The translations under genes and the position numbers were made by a program. The notes below the pieces were generated by a model. That model saw nothing but the letters and a program-made list of their open reading frames with translations, did no database searches and was not told the DNA's origin. A DNA stretch of 57,863 nt from a virus (taxonomy: Duplodnaviria > Caudoviricetes): positions 1-57,863 of IMG/VR virus record IMGVR_UViG_3300036770_002369; one strand, written 5' to 3'. Numbering within the stretch: position 1 is the first letter of the stretch; each line of letters begins with the position of its first letter. Positions 1,065 to 15,900 of this stretch are shown in pieces.

Positions 1065-1238
1065 GGCGGCTTCGCGGGCCTGGGCCTCCGCCCGCAGGCG
1101 CGTGAGACGCGCCATCGTCTCCTGATACGCCCGGTCCAACCGGGCGTTCGCCCGAGACCGGGCAGCCCGCTCCTGCTCCATCTGAGTCCGGAGTTCCCGG
1201 GCTCTCTCAATCTCCAGGGCAAGGCCAAGTCCGCTCAT
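1041..1238 (-). CDS. Small coiled-coil hypothetical protein, 65 aa, probably leaderless
   Basis: ATG at 1238 sits exactly 7 nt after the GGATAG box of the class I motif. Sequence is A/R/E-rich and helical. Confidence 0.75.
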   Translation of the reverse strand: MSGLGLALEIERARELRTQMEQERAARSRANARLDRAYQETMARLTRLRAEAQAREAALAEIQQG

Positions 1239-1282
1239 ACCTGAGCTATCCGCGAGACCCCCCGGTTTAGCCACAATCGACA
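1239..1282 (-). promoter_or_regulatory. Class I (early-type) promoter motif, copy 1
   Basis: Minus strand TGTCGATTGTGGCTAAACC-GGGGGGTCTCGC-GGATAG-CTCAGGT-ATG. Confidence 0.8.
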
Positions 1283-1296
1283 CCTTCACCTGTTTT

Positions 1297-1340
1297 TGTC
1301 GATTGTGGCTAAACCAGCCACGGTCGCGGATAGGTTAGGC
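1297..1340 (+). promoter_or_regulatory. Class I promoter motif, copy 2 (divergent from copy 1)
   Basis: TGTCGATTGTGGCTAAACC-AGCCACGGTCGC-GGATAG-GTTAGGC-ATG(1341). Confidence 0.8.
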
Positions 1341-1655
1341 ATGAACAGCAAGGTGGCGATGACGAACGACGGTGTTGAGGTGGTCCCCGGAATGGGGGCC
1401 ACCGTGTCGGTGGGTAGCGACTGCTACCCGTACACGGTGGTTGCGGTGCTCTCGCACCGCAAGTGCCTGGTGAGGCGAGACAACTTCCGCCTCGACGAGC
1501 ACCACTACGGAATCGGCTTCGAGCCCGACTTGGGGGCCGTCCCCGAGGAGGCCACCCGGTGCCGCGACGGCAGGTGGGTGGTGGGCCGGACGAAGGCGGA
1601 CGGCACCCGCCTCACCATCGGGGTGCGGCGGGCCTACCTGGACCCCCACTTTTGA
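1341..1655 (+). CDS. Conserved-looking phage hypothetical protein, 104 aa (GMGAT..GSD.YP.TV ... Y.DPxF type)
   Basis: Leaderless ATG at the fixed promoter distance. The motif pattern is one I recognise from phage early-region proteins of unknown function. Confidence 0.75.
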   Translation: MNSKVAMTNDGVEVVPGMGATVSVGSDCYPYTVVAVLSHRKCLVRRDNFRLDEHHYGIGFEPDLGAVPEEATRCRDGRWVVGRTKADGTRLTIGVRRAYLDPHF

Positions 1656-1661
1656 GCCCGG

Positions 1662-1696
1662 TCAGGGAGGGTGTGGTTTCGGCACACCCTCCCTGA
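1662..1696 (+). terminator. 14-bp perfect stem-loop after the 1341-1655 gene
   Basis: TCAGGGAGGGTGTG (1662-1675) / CACACCCTCCCTGA (1683-1696), loop contains TTCG. Confidence 0.65.
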
Positions 1697-1764
1697 AATC
1701 CGTGCCGGTCGTAGCCGGGAGGGATCTAAGAATCCTCATGGGGTTCTTCGCCCTGGGCGGACGA

Positions 1765-1808
1765 TGTCGATTGTGGCTAAACCCATCGGGGTTCCGGATA
1801 GCTTAGAT
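1765..1808 (+). promoter_or_regulatory. Class I promoter motif, copy 3
   Basis: TGTCGATTGTGGCTAAACC-CATCGGGGTTCC-GGATAG-CTTAGAT-ATG(1809), followed by a hairpin plus RBS leader. Confidence 0.8.
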
Positions 1809-1836
1809 ATGGGGGAGCGACCCCCGGGAGGTTTCA

Positions 1837-2028
1837 ATGGCGGACAACACGGACAAGCTCCTCACCCTGATGTTCAAGGCCAAGAGCCCGGAAGTTCGTG
1901 ATGCGATTTGGGGCCTGATCCGGCAGAGACTTGCCGGTCGAGCGGTCGCTCCCGACGCCCGCCTAAACAAGTCGGCGGTCTACCGCCAAGCGGTCAAGAT
2001 CGCGGAGTCGGCTTCCCGCGCCCCTTGA
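1837..2028 (+). CDS. Small basic hypothetical protein, 63 aa
   Basis: RBS GGGAGG before ATG 1837, downstream of class I promoter copy 3. Confidence 0.75.
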   Translation: MADNTDKLLTLMFKAKSPEVRDAIWGLIRQRLAGRAVAPDARLNKSAVYRQAVKIAESASRAP

Positions 2029-2101
2029 TCCGTCCGGGGGCTCAGGGACCGAGCCCCCTAGAACGGGACGGACGTCCCGTTCCCCCTTTTCGCACGGACG
2101 A

Positions 2102-2145
2102 TGTCGATTGTGGCTAAACCAGTCGGGTTGGTGGATAGCTTGGAC
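2102..2145 (+). promoter_or_regulatory. Class I promoter motif, copy 4
   Basis: TGTCGATTGTGGCTAAACC-AGTCGGGTTGGT-GGATAG-CTTGGAC-ATG(2146), followed by the same 23-nt leader as copy 3. Confidence 0.8.
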
Positions 2146-2173
2146 ATGGGGGAGCGACCCCCGGGAGGGCGAG

Positions 2174-2392
2174 ATGGTTGAGATGGCAGTTCGGAAGTTC
2201 GGCTTCAGCGTCGTCGAGGAGGGCTACGCCCTGTTCGACGACGCCACCCGCTCGTGGTGGGTGAGCCCTGCCCGAGACGTGGCCCGTCTCGGGCAGATGG
2301 TGGAGGAGGGGGTGCCGGACGCCTACAGCGTCTGGTGCTCGGAAACGAGCGCCCGCGAGATGCCGTCGGGCTGGACGCCCGACGAGGGCTGA
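2174..2392 (+). CDS. Small hypothetical protein, about 72 aa (start 2174 or 2183)
   Basis: RBS GGGAGG at 2163-2168, in-frame ATG at 2174. The ORF-track start at 2108 lies inside the promoter motif. Confidence 0.7.
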   Translation: MVEMAVRKFGFSVVEEGYALFDDATRSWWVSPARDVARLGQMVEEGVPDAYSVWCSETSAREMPSGWTPDEG

Positions 2393-2447
2393 ACGCCCCT
2401 TTCCCGTAAGGGGCTCTGATCTAGGAGCCCGATGGAGTAGGAGAGAC

Positions 2448-3014
2448 ATGATTGAACGAAAGATGATCCGCATCCAGGGAGGCACCTACCTGATGGGCGC
2501 CTCCCCCGACGACACCGAGGCGTTCAATTCCGAGCGCCCCCAGCACGAGGTCGCCGTGGGCGACTTCGAGATCGAGAACCTGCCCGTGACCAACGGGCTC
2601 TGGTTCGAGATCATGGGCGGCGACGAGCCCTTGCCCGAGGAGCGGGATCTGCCCAAGGTTTACGTTTCGTGGGTCGAGGGTGCAGCGTTTATGAACGCTC
2701 GGAGCGAGCGTGAGGGGCTGAAGCCCGTCTACAGCTTCGCCCCGGACGGAACCGTGACCGAGGATTCCGAGGCGGACGGCTACCGCTACCCCTCCGAAGA
2801 GGAGTGGGAGTACGCGGCTCGGGCCGGGACGACGACGCCTCGCTACGGCAAGGTCGAGGACATCGCCGGGGTCGACACCAACTCGACCCCGCCCGTCGGG
2901 ACGAAGCAGCCGAACGCCTGGGGGCTCTACGACATGCTCGGTCTCGTCTGGGAATGGACCGGGACCGTGTACGAGAGCTACGCGGAAAAGATCAAGCGGC
3001 GAGGTGCGAAGTGA
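2448..3014 (+). CDS. FGE-sulfatase (SUMF1/CLec-fold) domain protein lacking its C-terminal RGGSW...GxR segment
   Basis: Hallmarks I.GG.Y.MG, E.PQH.V....F.I...PVTN, P.V.VSW..A, YRYPSEEEWEYAARAG, KQPNAWGLYDMLGLVWEW. Stops 17 residues after VWEW. RBS AGGAGA. Confidence 0.9.
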   Translation: MIERKMIRIQGGTYLMGASPDDTEAFNSERPQHEVAVGDFEIENLPVTNGLWFEIMGGDEPLPEERDLPKVYVSWVEGAAFMNARSEREGLKPVYSFAPDGTVTEDSEADGYRYPSEEEWEYAARAGTTTPRYGKVEDIAGVDTNSTPPVGTKQPNAWGLYDMLGLVWEWTGTVYESYAEKIKRRGAK

Positions 3015-3145
3015 TCTACTACATCCTGCGGGGCGGTTCGTGGTTCAGTCAACCCTCGTATGCGCGTGCGTCCTACCGTAACAGTCACACGCCCGCGTAC
3101 CGCGTCGAGATCGTCGGCCTCCGCTGCGCTAGGAGGGCGAGATGA
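3011..3145 (+). CDS. FGE/CLec C-terminal variable-segment peptide 1, 44 aa
   Basis: GTG overlaps the upstream stop (GTGA), RBS GAGGTG. Translation MIYYILRGGSWFSQPSYARASYRNSHTPAYRVEIVGLRCARRAR. Confidence 0.8.
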   Translation: MIYYILRGGSWFSQPSYARASYRNSHTPAYRVEIVGLRCARRAR

Positions 3146-3276
3146 TCCCCTACATCTTGCGTGGCGGTTCGTGGGACTTCATTCCCATGTTCTCGCGCGC
3201 GTCCGACCGTTTATGGGGCGTGCCTGCGAAACGCTACGTTGGCGTCGGCCTCCGATGCGCTAGGATGGCGGGGTGA
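3142..3276 (+). CDS. FGE/CLec C-terminal variable-segment peptide 2, 44 aa (absent from the ORF track)
   Basis: ATGA overlap, RBS AGGAGG at 3131-3136. Translation MIPYILRGGSWDFIPMFSRASDRLWGVPAKRYVGVGLRCARMAG. Confidence 0.8.
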   Translation: MIPYILRGGSWDFIPMFSRASDRLWGVPAKRYVGVGLRCARMAG

Positions 3277-3491
3277 CCCCTTCTATCTTGCGCCCCAAGT
3301 CGGGCCGAGACCGAACCTGGGCCAACGTCCCCCGAAAGGCCCGGGTCGTCTACCGGACCCTGAAGCGTGTCTTTCGGGGCGGAAGCTCCCATCTCGCACC
3401 TCACGCTTTCAGCGTGTCTAGTCGAGGTAAGGCACCCTCTCCAGAAAGCAGCGTTTACATCGGCCTCCGGTGCGCCCGTCGGGCAAGATGA
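3273..3491 (+). CDS. FGE/CLec C-terminal variable-segment peptide 3 with basic N-terminal extension, 72 aa
   Basis: GTGA overlap. Ends RVFRGGSSHLAPHAFSVSSRGKAPSPESSVYIGLRCARRAR, with the same 25-residue RGGS-to-GLR spacing as peptides 1 and 2. Confidence 0.75.
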   Translation: MTPSILRPKSGRDRTWANVPRKARVVYRTLKRVFRGGSSHLAPHAFSVSSRGKAPSPESSVYIGLRCARRAR

Positions 3492-3573
3492 ACCGCAGCC
3501 GCTCGCTACACAACGACCACCCGAGCCCCCTAGATCGAAAGAACTGGACGTTCGCCCCTTCCCGCACGGGCGA

Positions 3574-3617
3574 TGTCGATTGTGGCTAAACCAGTCGGGT
3601 TGGCGGATAGGTTAGAC
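3574..3617 (+). promoter_or_regulatory. Class I promoter motif, copy 5
   Basis: TGTCGATTGTGGCTAAACC-AGTCGGGTTGGC-GGATAG-GTTAGAC-ATG(3618). Confidence 0.8.
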
Positions 3618-3986
3618 ATGACCAACCTCGCCAACCTCGCCAACCTCGCCAACCTCGCCAACTTCACCGGGCTCCGCGTGGACGTCCTCACCGTCGCGGA
3701 GATGAGGCTGATGTTCCGAGTCCTGCGGAACATCAGCATCAACAACGGGGGGGTCGAGAGCCCCCGAGAGTTCGAGGAACTCTGCCGCCTCTGGATCCCG
3801 GAGGGGGACGAGTCCCCCTCCGCGTGGGTTCACGCGGCCTACGCGGTGGCGCTCCTTACCCGCCGCGTGGAGGACGAGCCTGAGTTTGAGGACGACGCCG
3901 AGGACGAGGCCGAGGACGAGGCCCGGTGGGCCGAAGACGCCGCCCTCCACGCCGCCGAGCAGGCGGCTCGCCGCACGGGCGAGTGA
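3618..3986 (+). CDS. Hypothetical protein with N-terminal NLA repeats and acidic tail, 122 aa, probably leaderless
   Basis: ATG at the fixed promoter distance. C-terminal EDEPEFEDDAEDEAEDE tract. Confidence 0.75.
   Translation: MTNLANLANLANLANFTGLRVDVLTVAEMRLMFRVLRNISINNGGVESPREFEELCRLWIPEGDESPSAWVHAAYAVALLTRRVEDEPEFEDDAEDEAEDEARWAEDAALHAAEQAARRTGE
3622..3662 (+). repeat. 9-bp tandem repeat CCAACCTCG x4.5 (in frame, NLA)
   Basis: Read directly from the sequence. Confidence 0.9.
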
Positions 3987-3998
3987 GCCGCCCCCCAA

Positions 3999-4043
3999 GG
4001 ACTCAGAGACGTTCAGTAAGGTTAGCCCTGCGTCTCTGAGTCC
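3999..4043. terminator. 13-bp stem-loop between converging transcription units
   Basis: GGACTCAGAGACG (3999-4011) / CGTCTCTGAGTCC (4031-4043). Confidence 0.55.
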
Positions 4044-4199
4044 CTCCTCGTCGTGAAGTGCGATCTGGCCCCCAGTGGGGAAGCGACGTGAGCCCTGGCG
4101 CCCGTATCCCACCTGTAAGAAATCAGGTACTTACGAGACGCTATTCGGAGTGGTCAAAAACCAGCCTCCCAAGACTTCTGACCGCTCTGTTCAGTAGTC

Positions 4200-5096
4200 C
4201 TATTGGACCCAGCGGGCAGCTTGCTCCTTGAGGAGTGCCAATGCTCGGGAGACGGTGCCCTTCGGAAGATGAAGCTGGGCGGCGATCTCGATGCGGTTCA
4301 GCCCCTGATGGACGAGCGGCAAAATCTGGATGGCCACCCCCAGGTCCGGCCCCGAACCCGAAGCCCGTAGATGACGCAAGAAATCAGCCTCGGCATCCAC
4401 GGACTCCGTCATCCTCGGGTCCGACGAAGCGACCTCCCCTACGTCCTGGTCCTCACCGTCTGCTGCCGGTAAGCCCACCTGCTCTACCTGACGACGCCGA
4501 TTCTCCCGACGATGGAAGTTCGACAGGATGCACGAACAGACCATGTGGACGTAGTGGCCGAACGACGACTTTGAGGCGTCCCAAGCGCACCGACCCGCGT
4601 TCCTCGCCAACAGCCCCCGGTACACCTCCTGAAGCACGTCCTCCGGATCGTAGCCCGCTGCGAAGATGCGCGTCCCGAACCCGGCGAAGAGGAGCTTCCG
4701 CACCTCGTCCGCCCGGTTCTCCAAGTCGATGCCCGTAGGCCCCTTGGACGGCACCACGGTGAGCCCAGGACGCAAGACCGCCCCCGTGGAGGGAGGAGCG
4801 ACCGTCAGCCCCTCAGAAGCCGTCGTAGGTGCTCTACGGCATATCTCCGTGAGACTCGCCTCCGGCACCACCGAGCGACTCGACCAAGCCCCCAGTCGAA
4901 AGTAGCGGTCGAACGTCCAGTTCTTACGACCCCGACCCGCGACCGAGTCCAGCAGCGAGCGTACCGACGTGTAGATCGGGCCTGCCTCACCTACCTGGTA
5001 TCCGAACGAAAGAACCTCGACCCGACGACCCCCGTCCTCGTGTCGTGTGTATAGGACGGCGGGCTTTCCCGTGCTGATCTTCTGAACAGAGTGCAA
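4200..5096 (-). CDS. ECF-like sigma-70 family factor with N-terminal DUF2924/RAMA-like domain
   Basis: Region-2-like DPEDVLQEVYRGLL...WDASKSSFGHYVHMV...LSNFHRRE and region-4 HTH GLNRIEIAAQLHLPKGTVSRAL. TTG start with RBS GGAGGT. Confidence 0.75.
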   Translation of the reverse strand: MHSVQKISTGKPAVLYTRHEDGGRRVEVLSFGYQVGEAGPIYTSVRSLLDSVAGRGRKNWTFDRYFRLGAWSSRSVVPEASLTEICRRAPTTASEGLTVAPPSTGAVLRPGLTVVPSKGPTGIDLENRADEVRKLLFAGFGTRIFAAGYDPEDVLQEVYRGLLARNAGRCAWDASKSSFGHYVHMVCSCILSNFHRRENRRRQVEQVGLPAADGEDQDVGEVASSDPRMTESVDAEADFLRHLRASGSGPDLGVAIQILPLVHQGLNRIEIAAQLHLPKGTVSRALALLKEQAARWVQ

Positions 5097-5487
5097 TCCC
5101 TACCTCCATTTTTGTGTAGGTTTGATCTTTTTCGGTTGTCGCCCAAACCGACCCAGGGTTACCCCACCCCACCGAATCGACCGAAAGATGGGCTCTGCCC
5201 GACTTCGTCGGGGCCTCGCCGGTCTTATACCGCTTATGTCTCGTCAGGTCAATCGGGGTCGTGAAGGGGTTTGTATTGGACCCGAACGGGTAGGTGTACT
5301 TGGGGGCTTCGATCTGGGGGATCGGTCCTTAGACCTCAGACAGAGGGTGTTATGGGGTCTTGGACGTCACTCGACATCGAAGGGGGGTCGAGGGGGTCGT
5401 TCTTGCTTGGACTGGGGGAGGGGAGGGAGGGGGTGGTACATCAAGGCCCGAGGAGGGGAGGGCTTTGATGTTTGTGAGGCAAGGTCG

Positions 5488-6255
5488 TTAGGCGGGGACT
5501 CCGGGGGCCTTCCACTTACCCGACATGACCGGACCTTCGGATCCGTCCCATTTGCCTCCGACGATGACGGCAGTTCCGCCGATCTGGGCTTTGCCGGTGA
5601 CGTGGGCATCGCCAGAGACTTTGGCATCGCCAAAGACATGGGCTCTGCCGGAGATGTTCGTATCGCCGTAGACATGGGCTCTGTCATAGACCTCGGCGTA
5701 GACGGAGATATGGGCGTCGCCGTAGACCTTGGCGATTTCATAGACCTTGGCGTTGCCGGAGACCTTGGCTTTGTCATAGACGTGGGCTCCGTCGTAGACC
5801 TTGGCGTCACCGAAGACCTGGGCGTTGCCGAAGACATGCGCTTGCTCAAAGACCTTGGCATCGCCGTAGACCTCGGCATCGCCATAGACCCATGATCTAC
5901 CGTAGACCTGGGCGTTTCCAGAGATTGCGGCGAGTCCGAAGACCTTGGCGAAACCGTAGACCTTAGCGTCGTCAAAGATTACGGCTTTGTCGTAGACATC
6001 GGCGTGGCCGTAGACCTCGGCGTGGCCGTAGACCTCGACTTCGCCGTAGATTTGTACGGTGTCGTAGATCGTGGCGCTGTCGTAGACTTGGGCATCGCCG
6101 TGGGCGTAGGCATCACCGTAAATGTGTTTTCCGTAGACGTTGACTTCCCCTCTAGCCCTACGGCTCAGGGAGGCAAGAATAGCCCTTCTCTCAGGATGCC
6201 CTACGGGAAGGGAGGCAGCTTTACGGATCAGGTGGGAACGAGCGGTTCGGTTCAT
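5488..6255 (-). CDS. Hexapeptide-repeat (V[YF]G[ND]A[KQ]) left-handed beta-helix-type protein with N-terminal leader, paralog A
   Basis: About 30 consecutive 6-aa repeats. RBS AGAGGA. Termini nearly identical to 56864-57649. Confidence 0.85.
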   Translation of the reverse strand: MNRTARSHLIRKAASLPVGHPERRAILASLSRRARGEVNVYGKHIYGDAYAHGDAQVYDSATIYDTVQIYGEVEVYGHAEVYGHADVYDKAVIFDDAKVYGFAKVFGLAAISGNAQVYGRSWVYGDAEVYGDAKVFEQAHVFGNAQVFGDAKVYDGAHVYDKAKVSGNAKVYEIAKVYGDAHISVYAEVYDRAHVYGDTNISGRAHVFGDAKVSGDAHVTGKAQIGGTAVIVGGKWDGSEGPVMSGKWKAPGVPA

Positions 6256-6940: not shown

Positions 6941-9900
6941 ATGAGCTTCGATTTTTCGGGTTACGTTCTTCGGTCTGCTCAGGTTGCTCCGTCCAATGCC
7001 CCTACGACGGCGGAAGCCACGACGGGTGTGGTCAGGGACGTCCGTCCAGTCCCAGCGGTGTATACGTTGCAGCCTGGTGGTGGTGCCGGGTCGCCTCCCG
7101 ATTTCGTGGATGCTGCTGCCGACCAGTATCGGGCGGCGGTTTTGGGCGCTCGGGGTACGAGTTCGACGGAATACCTCTTGTGGGCTCAGAACACGTCTCA
7201 GCTAGGTCTTGTCTCCGACCCTTCGTGGTGGGCGAACTTGGCGGACGGACTGGGTTCGATCCCTTCGGGTACGCTCACGGTCACCGATCTTGATCCCCCG
7301 GACCTCGACCCTCCGCTCCCTGCCGGATACGGGTTCTTTTACGATGGGACCGACCGGGTCATCGTCACGGATCGTGGGAACCGCAGTCTCGGGATCATTT
7401 ACCGGCTGGTGGTCGCTCGCGGGGACGTCGAGTACGACGATGACGGTTGGGAGCGGGTCGGCGGGCAGATCGACCCCATCAACGGGAATCGGGAAGGCAG
7501 TCCTCCGTACCTCGTTTTGGACATCGATCCTTCAGATCAAGATCCGGTCTCGGGGGTCGTCCGTCTTACGTCGGCTCAGTTGATTTTGCTCCAGGGCGGT
7601 CTTTCTCAAAGTCGTGGGGACCGGGTCATCGAGGTCGTGTACACGGTAGCTCCGGCTCGTTTCTGGTGGACGCGGAATGACCGTTACGGTCTACGCTTTG
7701 GGTGGAACGGAAAGACTCGAAGGTGGGAGCCTTTCAAGGGTGGAGCCCCTAAGAACTTGGGGCCGCTTCAGTTCGACTCCGCCTATCAGTTGGACCCTCG
7801 GTTCGGAAACCTGCCGATCAACGCTTATCTGCCGGGCGACGCTCTGACTCCGGACTCGTATGCGATGATCCGTCTGGGGACTTCGCCGGGGTCTTCCAGT
7901 CTTCCGGTCGCTGCCGACGGCACATTCACGGGGATCCGGATCAAGGCAGACGCGGATGTCGAGGCGGGCTTTGATTTCTCGACGGACGCTTCGGTCTCGG
8001 GGGTCTTGGGTCAGTCGAACGGTCTTCTGGTCTTCAATCCGGCGTACACCGAGCTTCATGCGGGCAAGACCATCTGGTACGTCTATCAGGATTTCCAGGC
8101 GGACTCGAATGGTGTTCTTGGTCCTTTGAAGAACGCCGACGTGACCCCTCTGTTCCTCGCCCCTATCCCTGGGGCTTTGGATCACCCGTTCGTCCGCATT
8201 GGTTCTCGGCGTCCGTTGACGCCGACTTTGGTCGAGACGGATGCGGCTTTGGAGTCGGCTTCCTCTCCGGGGGAGGGGGAGGTCATCGTCTCTCTTTCGA
8301 CGGGTCGGCTTCGGTTCAGTCCAGGGGACATTGGGAAAGCGGACCCCTCTGGGCCTTTGTTCGATCTCCAGTTCCTTGGGGCGTCGGTCATCTATGACGG
8401 TCTGGCACTCAATGCGGTGCCTCAACCGACTCGGGCTCCGGTTCCTTTGCTGAATTCCTCTGGTGGGGTCGCTTCCGTCGGTCTAGGGAACGCGCTGTTC
8501 ATCCCCAACGCTTCTTATCTTCCGACGACGGCGAGCGGTTCGGACCCGTACCGGGGTCTCGGTCGTTCGGGCATCTTGGACGCTCCCGACGGTACGGGTT
8601 CTCTTCCCGATCAGGTCGGTGTCGAGGCGAGTGTTCGTCCCGGAGGGGACACGGTCGGGGCGACGACCACGGGTCGTATCCGTCAGGTCACGGACGGCAT
8701 GGGGGACGCTTTCCTGTTTTCCCGTGCGGGGGCTTTGCTCCAGATCGTCACCGTGGACAATCCGGACGATCTTCCCTCGTCTTCGGACGTTCCTCGGGGG
8801 GTCGCCTATGTATGCAAGCAGGCGGAAGCCCTTGGGGGTGGTGCGGTCGGGTCGAGGGTTCAGATCAGCCGGGAGGATCGCAAGGCTGCGCGCGACAACC
8901 CTTTGTATTTCCTCCAGTCGGTTTTGACTCCTTCCGCGTACACGACGCAGGCCCGGGTCTATTCCAAGGTCCGCAAGGTCTTTCGGTTCAATGGTTCGGA
9001 GGTCTTGTACTTTGCCATCGACGGGGTGGTGCAATCTTGGGCGTCCGCCATCTTGATTGCTGCCTTCCCGGACTTGGATTTCTTTACGGCAGAGCAGGTC
9101 GCTGCGAGCATCGACTCTGTCCTCACGGTCGGTCAGTCGCGAGCGATCAACGGGAGCGTCCTGCTGGAGTCATTGACCAGCGGGTCGGTCGAGATTGGTT
9201 TTGGGACCGGGGGGTCTCGTGACCTGTCCGGTGCAGCGGCACTTGGTTTTCTCCCGGGCTGGCGGGTGGTCGAGGGTATCGACAACTGGCTACCAGACTC
9301 GGGGGCCAGTTACGGTCTCTATCGGAGTCCGGTCAATCTTGACCGTTCCGGTGCGACCGCTGATTTCAATGACGTGGATCGGCTCTCGGGGGCTGTGCTT
9401 CAGGAGAGCATCTCGCCCAACCCCTTCGTGTTTTTGGACAATGTGCCCCTACAGGATGTTGCGGGCTATGACGACGGGGTCTTTTTCCAGTTCTCGAACG
9501 TGATCGTTGAGGGGGAGACGGTTCAACTGGTGAACCGCCCGTTGAAGAACTACCAGGACGTCCTCTACGGGTTCGGGGATGGCAAGTTCAACTGGCTAGA
9601 GCAGGACATCGCGACCACGACCCTTCAGCAACCTACGTCCACGTTTTCCCTTGGGCGCACCAGCATTGTCCCGGAGTCCATGTTCGGCATCCCTGGCTTG
9701 GCTGGAGGTCTCTATGCTGCCGATCTGGATTCTTCATCCAGCGGCAGTTTTACGCTCCTTGACCCCGACACGCAGTACGTCCTCCCGCTCGCGGGCCAAA
9801 CGGGCGAGGTCATCTTGATTGACCGCTTCGGGGACCGGGCGACCTTTGGTTCCCTTGGCGCTTTTGCTGCCGACACCACGACCTTCACCGATTCGGGTGC

Positions 9901-12900
9901 TTCCTTCACCACGACCGTTCAGCCGGGCTATCGGCTGAAGATCACCTCGGGCGAGGCCCAAGGGTCTTACACGGTCATCAACGTCCTCAGTAACACCCAG
10001 CTTGAGGTCGCGCCTCCGTTCCTGTTTTCCTCGGTTCGATCAACACCTTGGGAGGCTTTCCGGGGATTCACTTCAGCGGTGTATGACCCCGGACTCGTGG
10101 CTGATGTTCTTTACAAGGACTTCAACCACCTCTCCTCGGAGCCCTTTGTCATCCGGGTGCTCACACTTCTCGGTCTCACGCCTCCGAATCCCCCTAGCGG
10201 GCCTCGGCTCCGCATCCCCAGTCTTGCGGCCATCGAAGCGAGCGGTCGGCCTATTCAGATCCGGTTCGGTCTATCCGCCCCTACCGCAGCGAACACGGCT
10301 TCTCTTCTGGCCTTGAGTCAGTCGAACCAGGGGGTGCTCGCCAACTACCTCACGCTCCCGGATACGGCACGTCTCGACTCGGGGGCTTTTAGCGTCCGAC
10401 TCGGGACGACCACGTTCACGGCGACTCCGGTCACGAGCTTCAGTCCCGACCCGGGGGGCGGTACGGGCATCGAATACCTCACCGTCTTGGCGAACACGGA
10501 CGGTCAGCTTCGCCCTCGGGGGACGCTCAAGTTCGGGACGCAGCTTCTCTCGGAGTACGCTTCGGCTCCCGTCTGGTATGTCGAGACGTTCCAAGGGGCG
10601 GCGGCTTTGTCCTCTGGGGTGGTCGAGTATGACCGGGAGACGGGTGATCTGAACTTCTCTCAGGCGGACCTGATCTCCCATGTGGATGAGAAGGTCTACC
10701 TGGTCGAGCAGATGATCACCACGGGTCGCAAGGACGTGGCGATCAACCCGGTCGCGGGTTCGTTCACGTTCAACGAGCCCCTTCAGTCGGGTCAGTCGGT
10801 CGAGGTCGAGTACTACCGGGCGAACGCAGAAGGGCGGCGGTTCGGTGACCTGATCATCGAGTTCCTCCCTGTCTACATCAAGAACGAGGTCGCGATCCAG
10901 CAGGCGTCCCCCGATACCTTCTTGTTCAATCCTGCGAACCGGACGGTCGATCAAGGCTTCGAGCCTGTCGTCTACATCGGCCCGGTGCAGCAGAACTTCG
11001 GGGGTCAACCGGACTACGTTCTCGATTATCCCCCGGACCTCAATGGCCAGGGGCGCCTTCGGTTCTCTCGGGCCATTCCCAGCTACGTTCCGGTCAAGGT
11101 CACCTATGCGGTCTTCGAGGCGGCGGGGGGCGAGACGTCTTATGACACGAGCCAACGCCCTGTGTATCGGCCTCCGTTCTTCATCACGGCGAACCAAAAC
11201 AAGTTCGGGCTACGGGGTGACCGGACTTCGGAGTTCCAGCCGGGCCAGCTTCTCCGCATCGGACGGGAGTGCTTTTACGTCCGGGGTACGCAGTACTTTC
11301 CGCCGACGTTGACGGGCGGAGACGTGACCTCCGTCCTCATCTTCCCTTCGACCACGTTGGAGGTCGGTAGCCGGTCCCCAGGTAACGACACCTTGACCTT
11401 CATCACGGAAGGTCCGGTCACCACGGTCGTCGATCCTGACGGCCCTTCTCCAGTTCCGACGACGGCTGACGCTGGGTTCATGCAGCCCCTTCCGATAGAC
11501 GTCTTTCCGTTTGAGCCGGTCACGCGAGGCCAAAAGAAAATCACCTTCAAGGGCAATCTGATGACCTTCGCGGTCGCGGGTCATCTCCTGGAGGTTGGTG
11601 GGCGTCCGTTCACGATCACGCAGTCGGAGTTGAGCGAAGACGGTAGCCGGACGATCATCACGGTATCGGCCCCGTTCAATGCGGCGGTCACGACGGGATC
11701 GAATCCGACGGTCAAGCTCTCCTACCGACCTGTCTATCCGCCCTCGGTTCGGGATCTGATCGGTGTTGGCCCTGTTCTGGACTCAGAACCTGTCGAGCTA
11801 GTCCTGTTCGGTGAAAAGGACCAAGCAAACCAAGAAAAACCAGGTCGGACGCTCATTCCCGACATCGAGTACCGGCTGGACCCAGACTCGGGTTCGATCA
11901 AGCTCTTGGAGCCTCTCCAAGCACCATTGGCAAGTGACCAGCGGCTTCTCTTGTCTTTCACTCGCAGGCGCGTTGTTCAGCCGTTCCTGAAGAATGGTGT
12001 CCTCGTGGAACCCAGGATCCATGCGGATTTTCGGTACACGACCCTTCCCAGTGCTCAGAACGGGCTTCTGGGGGGTCAGCTTGCGGCCACCTACACGTTC
12101 GCTTCACCGGATAGTTTCTACTTCCGCATGGTGCCCTTGGCGCAGTTCCTCGGGGAAGCGGCGAAGGAGGCCCAGGCGGAGATCAAGGCCAAGCAGCCCG
12201 CAGGCGGAGCGATCAAGCTCGGTACGGCTTCGACGAATAACTGGGATCGGGGGAATGAAGGGCTCTTGGCCCAGCGTCGTGATTTGCTCGACAAAGATCG
12301 GGCGGCGCGGACGTTCCTCGGCTTCTACAATGAGACCGTCCTGACGTTTGAGCAAGTCTTGGAGACGATTTCGGGTCGCCTCATCGGAGATCAGGACGGC
12401 AAGTTCCGCTTCTGGGTCGGCAAGGGCAAAGACTACGCTCCCCCGGGCTACGAAGACGAGATCACGGGGCTCTTGAACCCCCGGCTCCTCTGGAACCAAG
12501 TCTTCAATGAGGCTGCGCCGGATGCGGACATCTGGGTGCTCGAATCCGACTGGCTCGTCAAGCCGTTGACGGCCACCCTCGTGGACAAAGAGGTCGAAGG
12601 TGACTCGCCGGATCCGGATTTCCTCGACCGGCTCGTTGTCCGTCAACTCAAGCTCGTCCAAAACGATGTTGATGACCGGATCCTCATCGCGCGCGGCCCC
12701 GATGAAGCCGGTTGGCTCGCCCCCTACAGATCGAAGGGTGTCTATGCTCGCATGAGCGACCCCCAGCCCTACTCCCGGTTGTTCCCGCAGCGGACCCGGG
12801 CTTTTTTCTTCACCTATCCGGGCATCGGGGCCGATCCAGCAACCGGCGACCCTGGCATCTATACCTGGGGCCGAATGTTTGGCGGAGAAGACTCTTCGAC

Positions 12901-15900
12901 GAACGGAAAGCCCATTGGCCGCTTGAAGAACCCTGTTCTGGGGAACATTGAGAACGTCAACACCGCGACGCTCCTCAACCGATATTCCCGAGCGCGTGTG
13001 TGGGGTTACTTCCCGAACGGGATTCCGGCCAACTCGTTCCCGGGACAGGTCGCCCCTATCGTAGAACCTTGCCTCATCGCGACCCCCGCTTCATTGAGCG
13101 ATTTTCCGCTTGATCCCGAGACGGGCTACCCGGATCCCACAAAACTCCTCTCCCAAGGAGGGTCGGTCATTGATCTCGTGACCGGAAACCCCGACCTTGC
13201 GACCCCACCTTTTGCCGTTGGGCAACAGATCGGATGGGGCAAGCCGGACGGGAAGTCCTATCAGGCAGCGACCAACTCGCTCCTCTCAATCTTCGGGACA
13301 CCCGGCTTGGAGGGGCTCTATGTCCGGGACGTGCAGTACGGGTGCGTCCTGCGCTTCGCTAACTATGGGGGGACGCCCATCAACAGCCCCGACCAAGTGC
13401 TCGTGTCCGTCACTCCCGGGTCCGGTGTGCGTGCGGAGGTGTTCCCCATCGAACAGGGCGACACCATCTACGTCGTCCCACCTGTAGGGGCCTCTAGTTA
13501 CCCTCCCCCCGGCTTCTCAGACCCGCCAACGGCGGAGGAACTCGCGCAACTTGCAGATCGACTCCCCGCATACCGCACCGGATTTGACGTGGAGATCCAG
13601 GCGGACGGTCAGGTGATCGACAACACCTGGCCCTCCTTCTCGGACCCGTTCTTCTTCGGCCTCAAAGAAATCTTCGGGCAGCGTCCGCCGCGACCCCTCT
13701 CACCCCTGGAAGGTGTCGTCCAGTTCAGCTATCTGAAACAGAACCCGCTGAACATTCCGGCCCTACAAGGCTTGGATAGGGATGATGCAGGCGATGAGCG
13801 CATCCCTTACCTCGCGACCGGGAACACCGAGCTAGACCGCTTCGATCAGCTATCCACGGTGTCCTCGGAGGTGATGACCGCCCAGAACGGGGCGCTCACC
13901 CTCTACGTCTATCCAGACGAGATCCCCGCCGACGATGGTTCTACGGTCGTCGCCGTGACCCCCTGGGTCGGAGCCGTGGACCGCGAACCCGCCGCCTTGA
14001 TGACCGATCAGGACGTCGAACCGAACACGGCGGGTCATGCGAGCTTCGGGGAGCCCGGTATTGGGAACGTCGAAGGCTTTGACCTTCTTCTGGTCCAGGT
14101 CGATGACGCCGCCACGAACGTCCCGCTAGGGGCTCAGGGCATCTTGACTGTGGGGGCGGTCGAGACCCGGAACCTCGGCGGCACGTCTTACGGGAGCCTC
14201 GTTGAACCTCCTCGGTTCATCACGCAGACGACGCCTCCCGCTGGACCCGGAAACTCGACGGGCTCGCCCGTCCGGTATTTCTTTGGGAACGCTCAGGCGT
14301 TCACCAATCCCCCGTATCCGGTAGATCCTCAGATCAGCCCTCCCGACGGCATTTACATCGTCGAGGATACGGCAGCAGGGCTCACGATTCTCGACCTGTC
14401 CTCGGTGACGGTCACGCTCAACAACGGCCTTGCGGTCGGTACGGGAAACCTGAACGACATCTGGGCCGCATCCGCGAACAACATCATCACCCTTCGGCTC
14501 TACGCTCGCCAGGATCCGAACCGGGCTCCCGGCTTTGATCCCGCAGCCGGGACCGTCTTGCTCACCCTGGTCATCGAGGGCTTGAACCTCGCCGTGACGG
14601 ACTACCTGGGGGTGACGAACAACTTCGTGTTGACCGGGCCTCCGGTCTTCGGGACGCATCAAGTACCCTTCGCCCCTGTCGATCAGAACCGGCAGATCCA
14701 CTTGCCGATCCTCGGGGCCATTCCTTTCGTCGGGCCTACGCCCACGAGCGGCCCTATCCCGTACTCGGTGGTCGATCCGGGCGGGCCAAACCAGATCATC
14801 AGTTCGCTCTACGGGTTCGAGTATTCGCTGTCCCTGGATACTTGGTCGTCCTCCGGCCAGTCGGACACCGCGTACATCGCGGAGGACCGGCTGACCTTTG
14901 CGGAGGTCATTGACTTCCGACTTGCCAAGGTCCGGGGCTATACGCACCCGGCGAACCCCCTGACAGACCTACAGGCGAACCTCGTGGTGTTCGAGGTGAC
15001 CATCGGAGGTCAGTTCTCAGCCATCAATGCAGTCGCCAACGGAGTCGGATTCTTTCCGTCCCCCTTCACGTTCCTTCATCGGTCCAACGCCGCGAGCGTG
15101 GACGACGTGGGCGGGACGTGGACGAACGCAGTAGCCCTGGCCTCCTCGGAGATCGGGACGATCCGGGTTCCCGCCTTCGAGGGCTGGTTCAACACCCCTA
15201 TTGAGATCGGCGGTTCGCCCCTCTCGGACGTGGTGTTCTCGGCGGTCCCTTCCTGCCCCGACGTGAAGAACGGTTCGACCATCTGTCTGGGAACGGGGAC
15301 GACCGAAAGCGCGTACTCGGGGCTTCCGGATGCCGTACAGCGGGACAATCGTATCAGGGACGTATCCGTAGTATCGGGAGACTTGGGGCTCATTGAGAAG
15401 GGAGACCTTCTCATCATCGATCAGGCCGATCATCCAACAGACCGGGCGACGACCAAGGCAGGGACGTACTTGGTCCGCTATGCCGTAGAAGCGGATCCCG
15501 GGCAGCAATACGGTCAAGCTACGGCAGACGCAAGTGCGGCGTACTCGGGTTGGACCCCCACGGTTTTTCCTTCGGTCATCTCCTACAATAGCGGGACCGG
15601 AGTTCTCACCGTGGATGGCCAATGGGGGCTCTTTGGCTGGGGCTCGCGCGCCTATGTCGTCTCGTCCATGAGCAAGCTCTCCTCGACGAACGTGATGACC
15701 TACCGGGAGGGGTTGATCAGCGCCAACATTCTTGGTGTGGTTCCCGTCGGTGGTGTCTATCAGGTCACCCTCGACACGACGACCCTGACCTATGCCAATG
15801 GCGACTCCCTGACGGCGGTCCAGGCAACACCGTTCATCCAGCCTGGGATGCTCGTCTCGGGCATGACTTCGCTTCCGATCACGGTTCGAGGAGGCAATTT

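Follow-up and report, generated by a model that had tools for sequence, protein, structure and literature searches.

Organization of the scaffold and cassette genes

The DNA analysed here, referred to as the window, is the whole 57,863-nt IMG/VR record IMGVR_UViG_3300036770_002369 of a phage of the class Caudoviricetes, which has a G+C content of 61% and an estimated completeness of 11% according to CheckV. It contains a cluster of four consecutive genes that appears to specify, in separate pieces, a domain of the formylglycine-generating enzyme (FGE)/C-type-lectin fold, i.e. one gene for the truncated body of the domain (hereafter, the scaffold) and three short open reading frames (ORFs), each encoding a version of the C-terminal end that the scaffold lacks (hereafter, cassettes 1, 2, and 3; Table 1). 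A preliminary description of this DNA had reported that an FGE-type ORF ends after its WEW motif and that the missing end is encoded three times downstream, and every detail of this account that was checked was correct.

The translation of the scaffold ORF (2448–3014) ends ...LVWEWTGTVYESYAEKIKRRGAK*, with its stop located 18 residues past the WEW motif and the basic tail AEKIKRRGAK as the C-terminus. The stop codon of each ORF overlaps the start codon of the next by 4 nt (GTGA at 3011, ATGA at 3142, and GTGA at 3273), and the starts of the cassettes are 131 nt apart, so that each ORF lies in the -1 frame relative to the preceding one. These overlaps and distances, which had been noted in the preliminary description, were reproduced from the sequence, and the translations reproduced the spacing between RGGS and GLRCAR that it had given, i.e. 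exactly 25 residues in all three cassettes. Cysteine is absent from the scaffold and occurs once in each cassette, within GLRC, in line with the earlier remark that the catalytic Cys pair of FGE is missing.

The array of the window is short (three units), and its cassettes are of the type ARASxR..GLRCARR. Direct repeats of 35–71 nt flank the cassette units (repeat families D5, D6, and D9), and a G+C-rich 3′ end is common to all cassettes (family D6). Cassette 3 carries a 28-amino-acid (aa) N-terminal extension, the first eight codons of which resemble the start of a cassette (family D5); this cassette is possibly a decaying unit or a fusion of two units. The search for orphan cassettes that had been proposed for the rest of this genome was run across the window, where our own cassette hidden Markov model (HMM; domain E-value 0.01) found none beyond the three on either strand.

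Table 1. Features of the scaffold–cassette cluster and its surroundings in the window
Feature	Position	Strand	Description
Promoter-like repeat, upstream copy	2095..2168	+	find_repeats families D2/D3; 51–74 nt with a terminal ATG; transcription of the cluster probably begins here
Scaffold gene	2448..3014	+	188 aa, FGE/C-type-lectin-fold domain minus its last ~45 residues
Shine-Dalgarno-like GAGG	3001..3004	+	6 nt upstream of the GTG of cassette 1
Cassette 1 mini-gene	3011..3145	+	GTG start, 44 aa, YILRGGSW..GLRCARRAR; GTGA overlap with scaffold stop
Shine-Dalgarno AGGAGG	3131..3136	+	5 nt upstream of the cassette 2 start codon (ATG); formed by a pair of rare Arg codons that belong to the end of cassette 1
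Cassette 2 mini-gene	3142..3276	+	ATG start, 44 aa; ATGA overlap with cassette 1 stop
Weaker AGGA motif	3262..3265	+	7 nt upstream of the GTG of cassette 3
Cassette 3 mini-gene	3273..3491	+	GTG start, 72 aa; divergent core RGGSS..GLRCARRAR; GTGA overlap with cassette 2 stop
Promoter-like repeat, next copy	3567..3640	+	find_repeats families D2/D3; probable start of the following unit and end of that of the cluster

Family and fold assignment

The scaffold matched positions 3–197 of the 255 positions of PF03781 (E 6.9e-30, 105 bits). Cassette 1 matched positions 214–255 of the same profile with 25.6 bits, which is above the cut-off of 23.3, and cassette 2 matched positions 215–255 with 18.4 bits, which is below it. 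Cassette 3 gave no Pfam match at E <= 1 and was recognized by our cassette HMM (E 5e-4). A complete PF03781 domain is therefore not present in any one polypeptide, positions 3–197 being encoded by the scaffold gene and positions 214–255 by cassettes in other frames.

The AlphaFold2 model of the scaffold alone had a mean predicted local distance difference test score (pLDDT) of 87.6, and a Foldseek search with this model yielded 69 PDB matches at E <= 0.001. The top fold match was the Treponema denticola protein TvpA (2y3c; E 2.2e-9, TMq 0.74), with CarF and human FGE behind it, and the top PDB match at the sequence level was SUMF2 (1y4j; 9.8e-14). A profile built from 30 free cassettes (i.e. 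cassettes encoded apart from a scaffold end) matched residues 256–294 of the 294 residues of TvpA, which are the last 39 residues of that protein. In FGE, the two active-site Cys residues are catalytic and lie in the C-terminal segment (numbered 336 and 341 in PDB titles). With no Cys in the scaffold and a single one per cassette, the domain cannot be a catalytic FGE, and its sequence points to a non-catalytic domain with a binding rather than an enzymatic role.

Coding and translation signals of the cassettes

The G+C content at third codon positions (GC3) in the called frames is 0.88 for the scaffold, 0.80 for cassette 1, and 0.77 for cassette 2, compared with 0.51–0.60 in the other frames. 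Nine positions of the cassette (R7, G8, G9, W11, R23, P28, G36, R38, and R41) are invariant or nearly invariant among 62 family members from outside the window, and cassettes 1 and 2 keep all nine, often by means of different codons (CGG/CGT, CGC/CGA/CGG for Arg, and TCG versus AGC for Ser). When these two cassettes were compared, the proportions of nonsynonymous and synonymous differences (pN and pS) were 0.02 and 0.24, respectively, at 20 framework codons, and 0.57 and 0.33 at the remaining 24, variable codons. The excess of synonymous change at the framework is consistent with the purifying selection on framework residues that the preliminary description had presupposed. Both cassettes are distant from cassette 3 (pS 0.58–0.63).

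Ribosome-binding sites had been claimed for the first two cassettes; GAGG and AGGAGG were indeed read at the appropriate places, and a weaker AGGA precedes cassette 3. The overlapping stop and start codons, each combined with a ribosome-binding motif 5–7 nt upstream, are what would be expected of a translationally coupled operon. The last codons of cassette 1 are AGG AGG GCG AGA. Among the 770 Arg codons of 11 large ORFs in the window, AGG and AGA account for 5.6 and 1.7%, respectively, and the rare pair AGG AGG is located exactly where the ribosome-binding site of cassette 2 is required. Cassettes 1 and 2 thus look translated, given the in-frame GC3, the synonymous change at conserved residues, and the ribosome-binding site made of rare codons.

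The coding status of cassette 3 is doubtful. Its extension has a GC3 of 0.82 and its core a GC3 of 0.57. The core keeps seven of the nine conserved positions, the conserved Ser and Arg being specified by other codons, and the Trp of RGGSW is gone.

The frame of cassette 1 is open for 69 codons upstream of position 3011 (ORF 2804–3145) and overlaps the 3′ end of the scaffold gene. The residues preceding the GTG of cassette 1 (..CEV) weakly resemble the sequence EVYGxYRVLRGG of intact relatives, and the open frame may be a relic of a formerly continuous gene.

Conservation of the split

An assembly indel had been named in the preliminary description as a finding that would refute the split. Contigs from three sequencing runs of one study (X1, X2, and X3), compared at the contig level, cross all three junctions unchanged, and an assembly indel was rejected on this ground. 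A 1492-nt contig of run X1, possibly the source sample, spans 2109–3600 with no difference, two contigs of run X2 cover junction 1 (2976–3129) and junction 3 (3167–3317), and one of run X3 crosses junction 2 (3091–3241), in each case with no differences and no gaps. No alternative letters or indels were present within 2976–3500 in the contigs of the three samples, which is weak evidence against hypermutation because rare variants are lost in contigs. No RNA data set was listed among the three runs, which bears on expression in neither direction.

The truncation is also shared by related proteins. The 11 nearest of 5456 scaffold homologues are 175–229 aa in length and 45–82% identical to the scaffold, and in the alignment, 10 of them end at the same site shortly after WEW, most with the conserved basic tail in frame 0. 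The sole nearest relative that reads on through RGGSW...GFR, i.e. the fused form, is P0007. In the first tree, from which matches spanning <120 HMM positions were left out, the scaffold falls in a clade of 10 rows (SH-aLRT 100), consisting of nine truncated proteins and P0007. The scaffold clade of the window is G+C-rich (61%) and from a subsurface metagenome. On the free quick tree, three changes are needed to account for the split scaffolds. A single clade of 16 split rows plus P0007 was not rejected (p-AU 0.667), the constrained tree being 8.9 log units better, in a test that included every third non-split row (58 of 172), with P0007, itself one of these, placed with the split rows.

Close nucleotide relatives were not found, a blastn search of 2448–3491 against 50,697 phage records giving no match. 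Among the contigs that encode scaffold relatives, no viral contig encodes one of >40% identity, and among the matches listed, no metagenome contig exceeds 49% and no genome contig 48%. Similar stand-alone proteins exist, such as P0307, a 45-aa protein from a 3057-nt contig that is 59% identical (24 of 41 residues) to cassette 1.

Cassette arrays in other phages and metagenomes

A search for contigs with truncated scaffold genes followed by mini-ORFs had been proposed, and we found such arrays by scanning 238 loci encoding scaffold relatives (78 viral loci, 80 metagenome loci, and 80 loci from bacterial or archaeal genomes) with the cassette HMM and a scaffold HMM. At least two free cassettes were present in 5 of the 78 viral loci, i.e. 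three in L025, nine each in L035, L036, and L037, and five in L042, and in 1 of the 80 metagenome loci listed (L136, six cassettes), and no array was found in the 80 bacterial or archaeal genome loci listed. Two further candidates were set aside: the Treponema locus L227 is an ordinary diversity-generating retroelement (DGR) with a variable repeat and a template repeat, and L099, which appears frameshifted or DGR-like, was not counted. The variable repeat of the L227 target gene is interrupted by an in-frame stop codon, and the template repeat likewise contains a stop (3718–3777 and 5463–5645).

In every array locus inspected, the scaffold ends after WEW, and truncated scaffolds and free cassettes occur together. 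The array cassettes carry their own starts. ATGA overlaps recur in L025 and L036, and the cassettes of L136 are ORFs of 38–43 aa, three of which are separated by 28-nt spacers. Some array ORFs hold two or three consecutive cassettes. L036 and L037 come from complete phage genomes of 87 and 88 kb, respectively, both lacking a reverse transcriptase (RT). Between L035 and L036, a flanking gene is ~98% identical, and the arrays are heavily different, with indels, RGGSW, CRSA, and GFRVVCLP being kept in both. Because arrays differ in this way between near-identical phages, a function in an arms race is suggested.

Cassette-like proteins are also numerous outside these loci. The profile of 30 free cassettes matched 929 proteins of 20–90 aa at E <= 0.001 among 2189 candidates, and in 36 of the best 120 of these, the motif lies within 15 residues of both ends. 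A profile of the three cassettes of the window, searched against 1.84 billion representatives, yielded 3430 matches at E <= 0.001. The top 150 comprise 47 proteins that consist of cassettes only, 3 in which free cassettes precede a cassette-less scaffold, 27 with extra free cassettes, and 72 ordinary ones, with P0364 outside these four classes; this ranking favours multi-cassette chains because scores are summed. Of the 47 cassette-only proteins, 3 contain one cassette (including P0382, which resembles a gene fragment), 33 contain two, and 11 contain three or more. A word search with cassette 1 alone among proteins of 24–77 aa had yielded no candidate, and profile searches were later used instead.

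Two unusual arrangements were noted among these proteins. In P0246, P0252, and P0341, as well as in ORFs of L036 (3734–4501) and L042 (3785–4501), one to five free cassettes are N-terminal to a cassette-less scaffold in the same chain, which, judged from sequence, resembles the domain in a circularly permuted or 'multiple-choice' version. P0241, P0244, P0268, and P0286 contain no scaffold and are made up entirely of three or four cassettes with acidic (Glu/Val-rich) linkers between them.

Correspondence to DGR variable regions

According to passages of PMC7159879, DGR target proteins with this domain vary in a C-terminal variable region, and the preliminary description had equated the cassettes with the segment diversified by DGRs. 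This correspondence was borne out by the match to the last 39 residues of TvpA and by a comparison with locus L040, a verified DGR with an RT (E 1.4e-20) in which all 18 mismatches between variable and template repeats are at template adenines. The cassettes of the window equal the L040 template in length, and positions that differ between cassettes 1 and 2 include all 12 positions of Asn codons in the L040 template, compared with 3 of 12 others (Fisher p 3e-4). On the basis of the common length and of the variation at template-Asn positions, the cassettes can be regarded as the counterpart of a DGR variable repeat. At the template-Asn positions, 19 of 24 codons end in C or T, compared with a background of 0.597 (p 0.037), and several of the variable codons are not of the NNY type (CAA, GAG, TTA, TGG, and AAA).

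No RT (PF00078) was matched within the record, itself estimated to be 11% complete. A template-like fourth cassette was not found on either strand of the window with the same HMM that did detect the templates of L040 and L227. Cassettes 1 and 2 differ outside the mutable positions too, as the framework values given above show. Owing to these framework and synonymous differences, the non-NNY codons, and the lack of an RT or template-like copy in the window, the cassettes do not appear to be fresh products of a DGR.

Model of the scaffold–cassette complex

The co-folding of scaffold and cassette that the preliminary description had proposed was carried out with cassette 1, which docked into the scaffold in the model. 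The complex score was 0.92 (0.92, 0.92, and 0.93 in the individual runs), and the best of three controls scored 0.11; of 80 solved complexes, 58 attain the mark applied to this score, as do 2 of 110 mismatched pairs, counts that are approximate here, our own alignments having been supplied. Contacts agreed among the runs to at least 97%, and the partner pLDDT was 88–89. In total, 211 contacts involve 43 of the 44 residues of cassette 1, the conserved ends of which pair with scaffold residues 168–174 and 41–47. The pLDDT of the scaffold was 92 beside cassette 1 and 62–70 beside unrelated partners, and that of cassette 1 beside an unrelated protein was 30. The modelling indicates that the two pieces are compatible and, to that extent, supports the predicted binding of cassette 1 to the scaffold.

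Interpretation and alternative explanations

These results lead us to favour, by a modest degree of confidence, the view that the cluster encodes a naturally split, non-catalytic lectin-fold domain, for which alternative peptides made from a common message provide the variable, ligand-facing end. A single operon would specify the whole binding domain, with the 188-aa scaffold as the conserved body of the FGE-type C-type-lectin fold and with the last two framework strands and the intervening ligand-facing loops contributed by separate 44-aa peptides. Translation of each peptide would be coupled to that of the preceding cistron through the 4-nt stop/start overlap and the Shine-Dalgarno motif. 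The conserved ends YILRGGSW and VGLRCAR would insert into the sheet of the scaffold, so that ~15 variable residues are displayed per peptide, and one scaffold with two or three cassettes would give two or three binding specificities. The anatomy of the cluster, its conservation, the coding and translation signals of cassettes 1 and 2, and the recurrence of arrays in other phages are observed, and from them we infer production of the peptides, their association with the scaffold in trans, and ligand binding by their variable residues. A wider proposal, to which we give slightly less than even chances, is that the cassettes form a germline repertoire of fast-evolving tips, i.e. DGR variable repeats that have been freed from the retroelement and are assembled with the scaffold at the protein level, singly or strung together.

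Several points weigh against the split-domain view. Translation of the mini-ORFs is deduced from coding signals, the division into framework and variable codons was chosen by ourselves from the family consensus and gives small counts, and cassette 3 appears degraded, with its low core GC3, its lost Trp, and no Pfam match. The open frame upstream of cassette 1 would permit a fused product made by frameshifting. The complex was modelled for cassette 1 alone among the three cassettes, and a pass indicates compatibility rather than binding, being the expected outcome when a fold known from many intact solved structures is modelled as two halves. The scaffold is confidently folded by itself, so that its model is silent on the need for a partner. 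Close relatives (P0002–P0010) were compared at the level of the protein sequence. Finally, a simple complementation of one scaffold by one peptide fails to explain the relatives that have several cassettes per chain.

The resemblance to DGR variable regions also admits an explanation in which the cassettes are themselves DGR variable repeats, either active from elsewhere or fossil, with the template and the RT located in the host or in phage DNA outside the window; the array would then consist of DGR targets rather than of a fixed library. The variability of all 12 template-Asn positions (3 of 12 at the others), the preference for C/T-ending codons there (19 of 24, background 0.597), the 11% completeness of the record, and the shared G+C-rich 3′ end (D6) are all in keeping with this, but neither a PF00078 RT nor a template-like cassette is present in the 57.9-kb window, two complete phage genomes carry similar arrays without an RT, and the framework and synonymous differences and several non-NNY variable codons indicate that the cassettes are not recent copies of a single template; that no variant letters occur at 3011–3491 in the contigs of the three samples is a weak argument, rare variants being lost there. 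We consider this explanation unlikely, if the least unlikely of the alternatives. Alternatively, scaffold and cassette could be fused into an ordinary full-length FGE-fold protein by a -1 frameshift in the terminal part of the scaffold ORF, and perhaps by others at the later junctions, the mini-ORFs then yielding no products of their own. All junctions are -1 steps, the frame of cassette 1 stays open over the 69 codons before its start (2804–3145), an A4G run lies in the scaffold tail at 2986, and the clade member P0007 is fused; moreover, Shine-Dalgarno-like motifs upstream of stop codons can stimulate frameshifting, as in dnaX and prfB. The -1 step is, however, an automatic consequence of a 4-nt stop/start overlap, and a search of the 90 nt at the 3′ end of each of the four upstream ORFs found no canonical slippery heptamer (X XXY YYZ). 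Relatives conserve the protein sequence of the frame-0 basic tail, and the four nearest appear from the alignment to have Asp (GAY) before the Lys, a combination incompatible with the A4G run, and the 28-nt spacers and independent starts of the L136 cassettes imply that fusion is not a general rule. Frameshifting is accordingly a clearly unlikely source of the functional product.

The remaining alternatives dispense with the scaffold, with translation, or with function. Peptides acting without the phage scaffold might plug into or compete with host FGE/FGS-type lectin domains, for instance hypervariable sensor domains in conflict systems of bacteria, or multi-cassette chains might structure themselves: 44 of the best 150 representatives are cassette-only proteins with two or more (two to five tandem) cassettes, and hypervariable FGS domains have been proposed as sensors of invaders in multicellular bacteria, according to passages of PMC7159879 and PMC10907252. 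This appears very unlikely for the window, where the cassettes are chained directly to a scaffold missing exactly that segment, and the co-occurrence of truncated scaffolds and free cassettes in every inspected array locus, the joining of both in P0246, P0252, and P0341, and the pLDDT of only 30 for cassette 1 without the scaffold argue in the same direction. Even more improbable in our judgement is that the cassettes are untranslated silent donors, with recombination between the conserved ends swapping or deleting units beside the scaffold. The 35–71-nt direct repeats that flank the units (D5, D6, and D9), the resemblance of cassette 3 to a two-unit fusion, and the strong differences between the arrays of near-identical phages would suit such a mechanism, but silent donors have no need for starts, 4-nt overlaps, Shine-Dalgarno motifs built from rare codons, or in-frame GC3, none of the cassettes is in frame with the scaffold, and a single arrangement was seen in the contigs of three samples. 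The least probable of the explanations is decay, i.e. an ordinary FGE-fold gene that was frameshifted and partly duplicated and whose pieces are functionless. Cassette 3 does look degraded, and single frameshifted FGE genes exist (L099, L123, and L140), but the truncation at one and the same site in 10 of the 11 nearest proteins, whose identity to the scaffold falls as low as 45%, the purifying selection suggested for the framework, and the recurrence of arrays in complete phage genomes are difficult to reconcile with it. The split domain with alternative peptides therefore remains the reading that we prefer.

Genomic context

The cluster is bounded by two copies of a promoter-like repeat (Table 1). 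Four copies of this repeat are present (1297–1347, 1765–1815, 2102–2152, and 3574–3624), each directly before a small ORF, and extended copies occupy 1758–1831, 2095–2168, and 3567–3640. The repeat is probably a phage promoter for leaderless or near-leaderless transcripts. Scans of 1200–4300 for sigma-70 promoters and terminators found no promoter-like site and no plus-strand terminator. A further 33-aa ORF (3488–3589) begins with an ATG that overlaps the cassette 3 stop as ATGA. Because it lacks an upstream Shine-Dalgarno motif and extends into the following promoter-like repeat, this ORF is unlikely to be a gene.

The neighbours of the cluster are small ORFs without family matches and, on the opposite strand, a sigma-factor-like gene. 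A baseplate/fibre block of ~50 kb starts ~4 kb from the cluster, from ~6.9 kb on. Its exceptionally large structural genes (at 6941–18202 and 22851–55994) encode proteins of 3753, 2059, 1224, 1228, 1707, and 2060 aa and are located around homologues of a sheath initiator and of Baseplate_J, and an Ig-domain protein was also recognized within this block; the 3753-aa protein had no Pfam match. It is plausible that the cassette cluster belongs to the early genes, for which reason the preliminary description had suggested a possible role in host takeover or anti-defence, and given its distance of 4 kb from the baseplate/fibre block, a role in adsorption is possible as well.

Two short-period repeats were noted downstream. 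Four to five tandem 9-nt units (CCAACCTCG) at 3622–3668 give the product of ORF 3618–3986 an N-terminal Leu-Ala-Asn repeat, and contigs of other samples show small indels at 3645–3647 within it. At 5559–6141, 26 copies of an 18-nt period (a hexapeptide-type repeat) run through overlapping ORFs on both strands.

Significance and comparison with known systems

If the split-domain reading is true, the cluster represents a natural case of fragment complementation used for the diversification of binding. It would offer phages a third route to varied binding, beside DGR hypermutation and invertible fibre segments, and a compact alternative to DGRs and to multiple receptor-binding genes, with many specificities obtained from little DNA. 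It would also explain hundreds of mini-proteins annotated as 'partial FGE' fragments of metagenomes (the 929 proteins of 20–90 aa mentioned above) and would provide protein engineers with a scaffold that accepts plug-in tips. In the openly accessible literature that was searched, including passages of PMC7159879, PMC10907252, PMC7824862, and PMC7468147, we found no account of separate tip genes that accompany a truncated FGE/FGS scaffold.

The closest structural likeness is to TvpA, the best solved fold match of the scaffold, whose last 39 residues correspond to the cassette profile. With DGR variable proteins, the cluster shares variation at the positions mutated by the L040 DGR and the lack of catalytic cysteines. 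It differs from TvpA and DGR proteins in that the variable segment is detached and encoded three times as separate cistrons. Furthermore, unlike in DGR proteins, neither an RT nor a template repeat is present in the window, the copies differ at synonymous sites and at sites not of the adenine type, and the diversity appears to reside in fixed genomic copies rather than to arise by mutagenic homing. The scaffold belongs to the same sequence family (PF03781) as FGE and its paralogues (SUMF1, SUMF2, PvdO, and the C-domain of EgtB), but the domain is incomplete within a single chain, cannot contain a Cys pair, and was seen in no sulfatase context.

The invertible tail-fibre segments of phages Mu and P1 and the shufflons operate by site-specific DNA inversion, and one fused protein is produced per genome state. 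The cluster resembles these systems in its proposed combination of a constant part with one of several adjacent, alternative C-terminal parts. It differs from them in that no recombinase was seen nearby, all units, each with a separate start, are in direct orientation, and the constant and alternative parts are proposed to be joined at the level of the protein.

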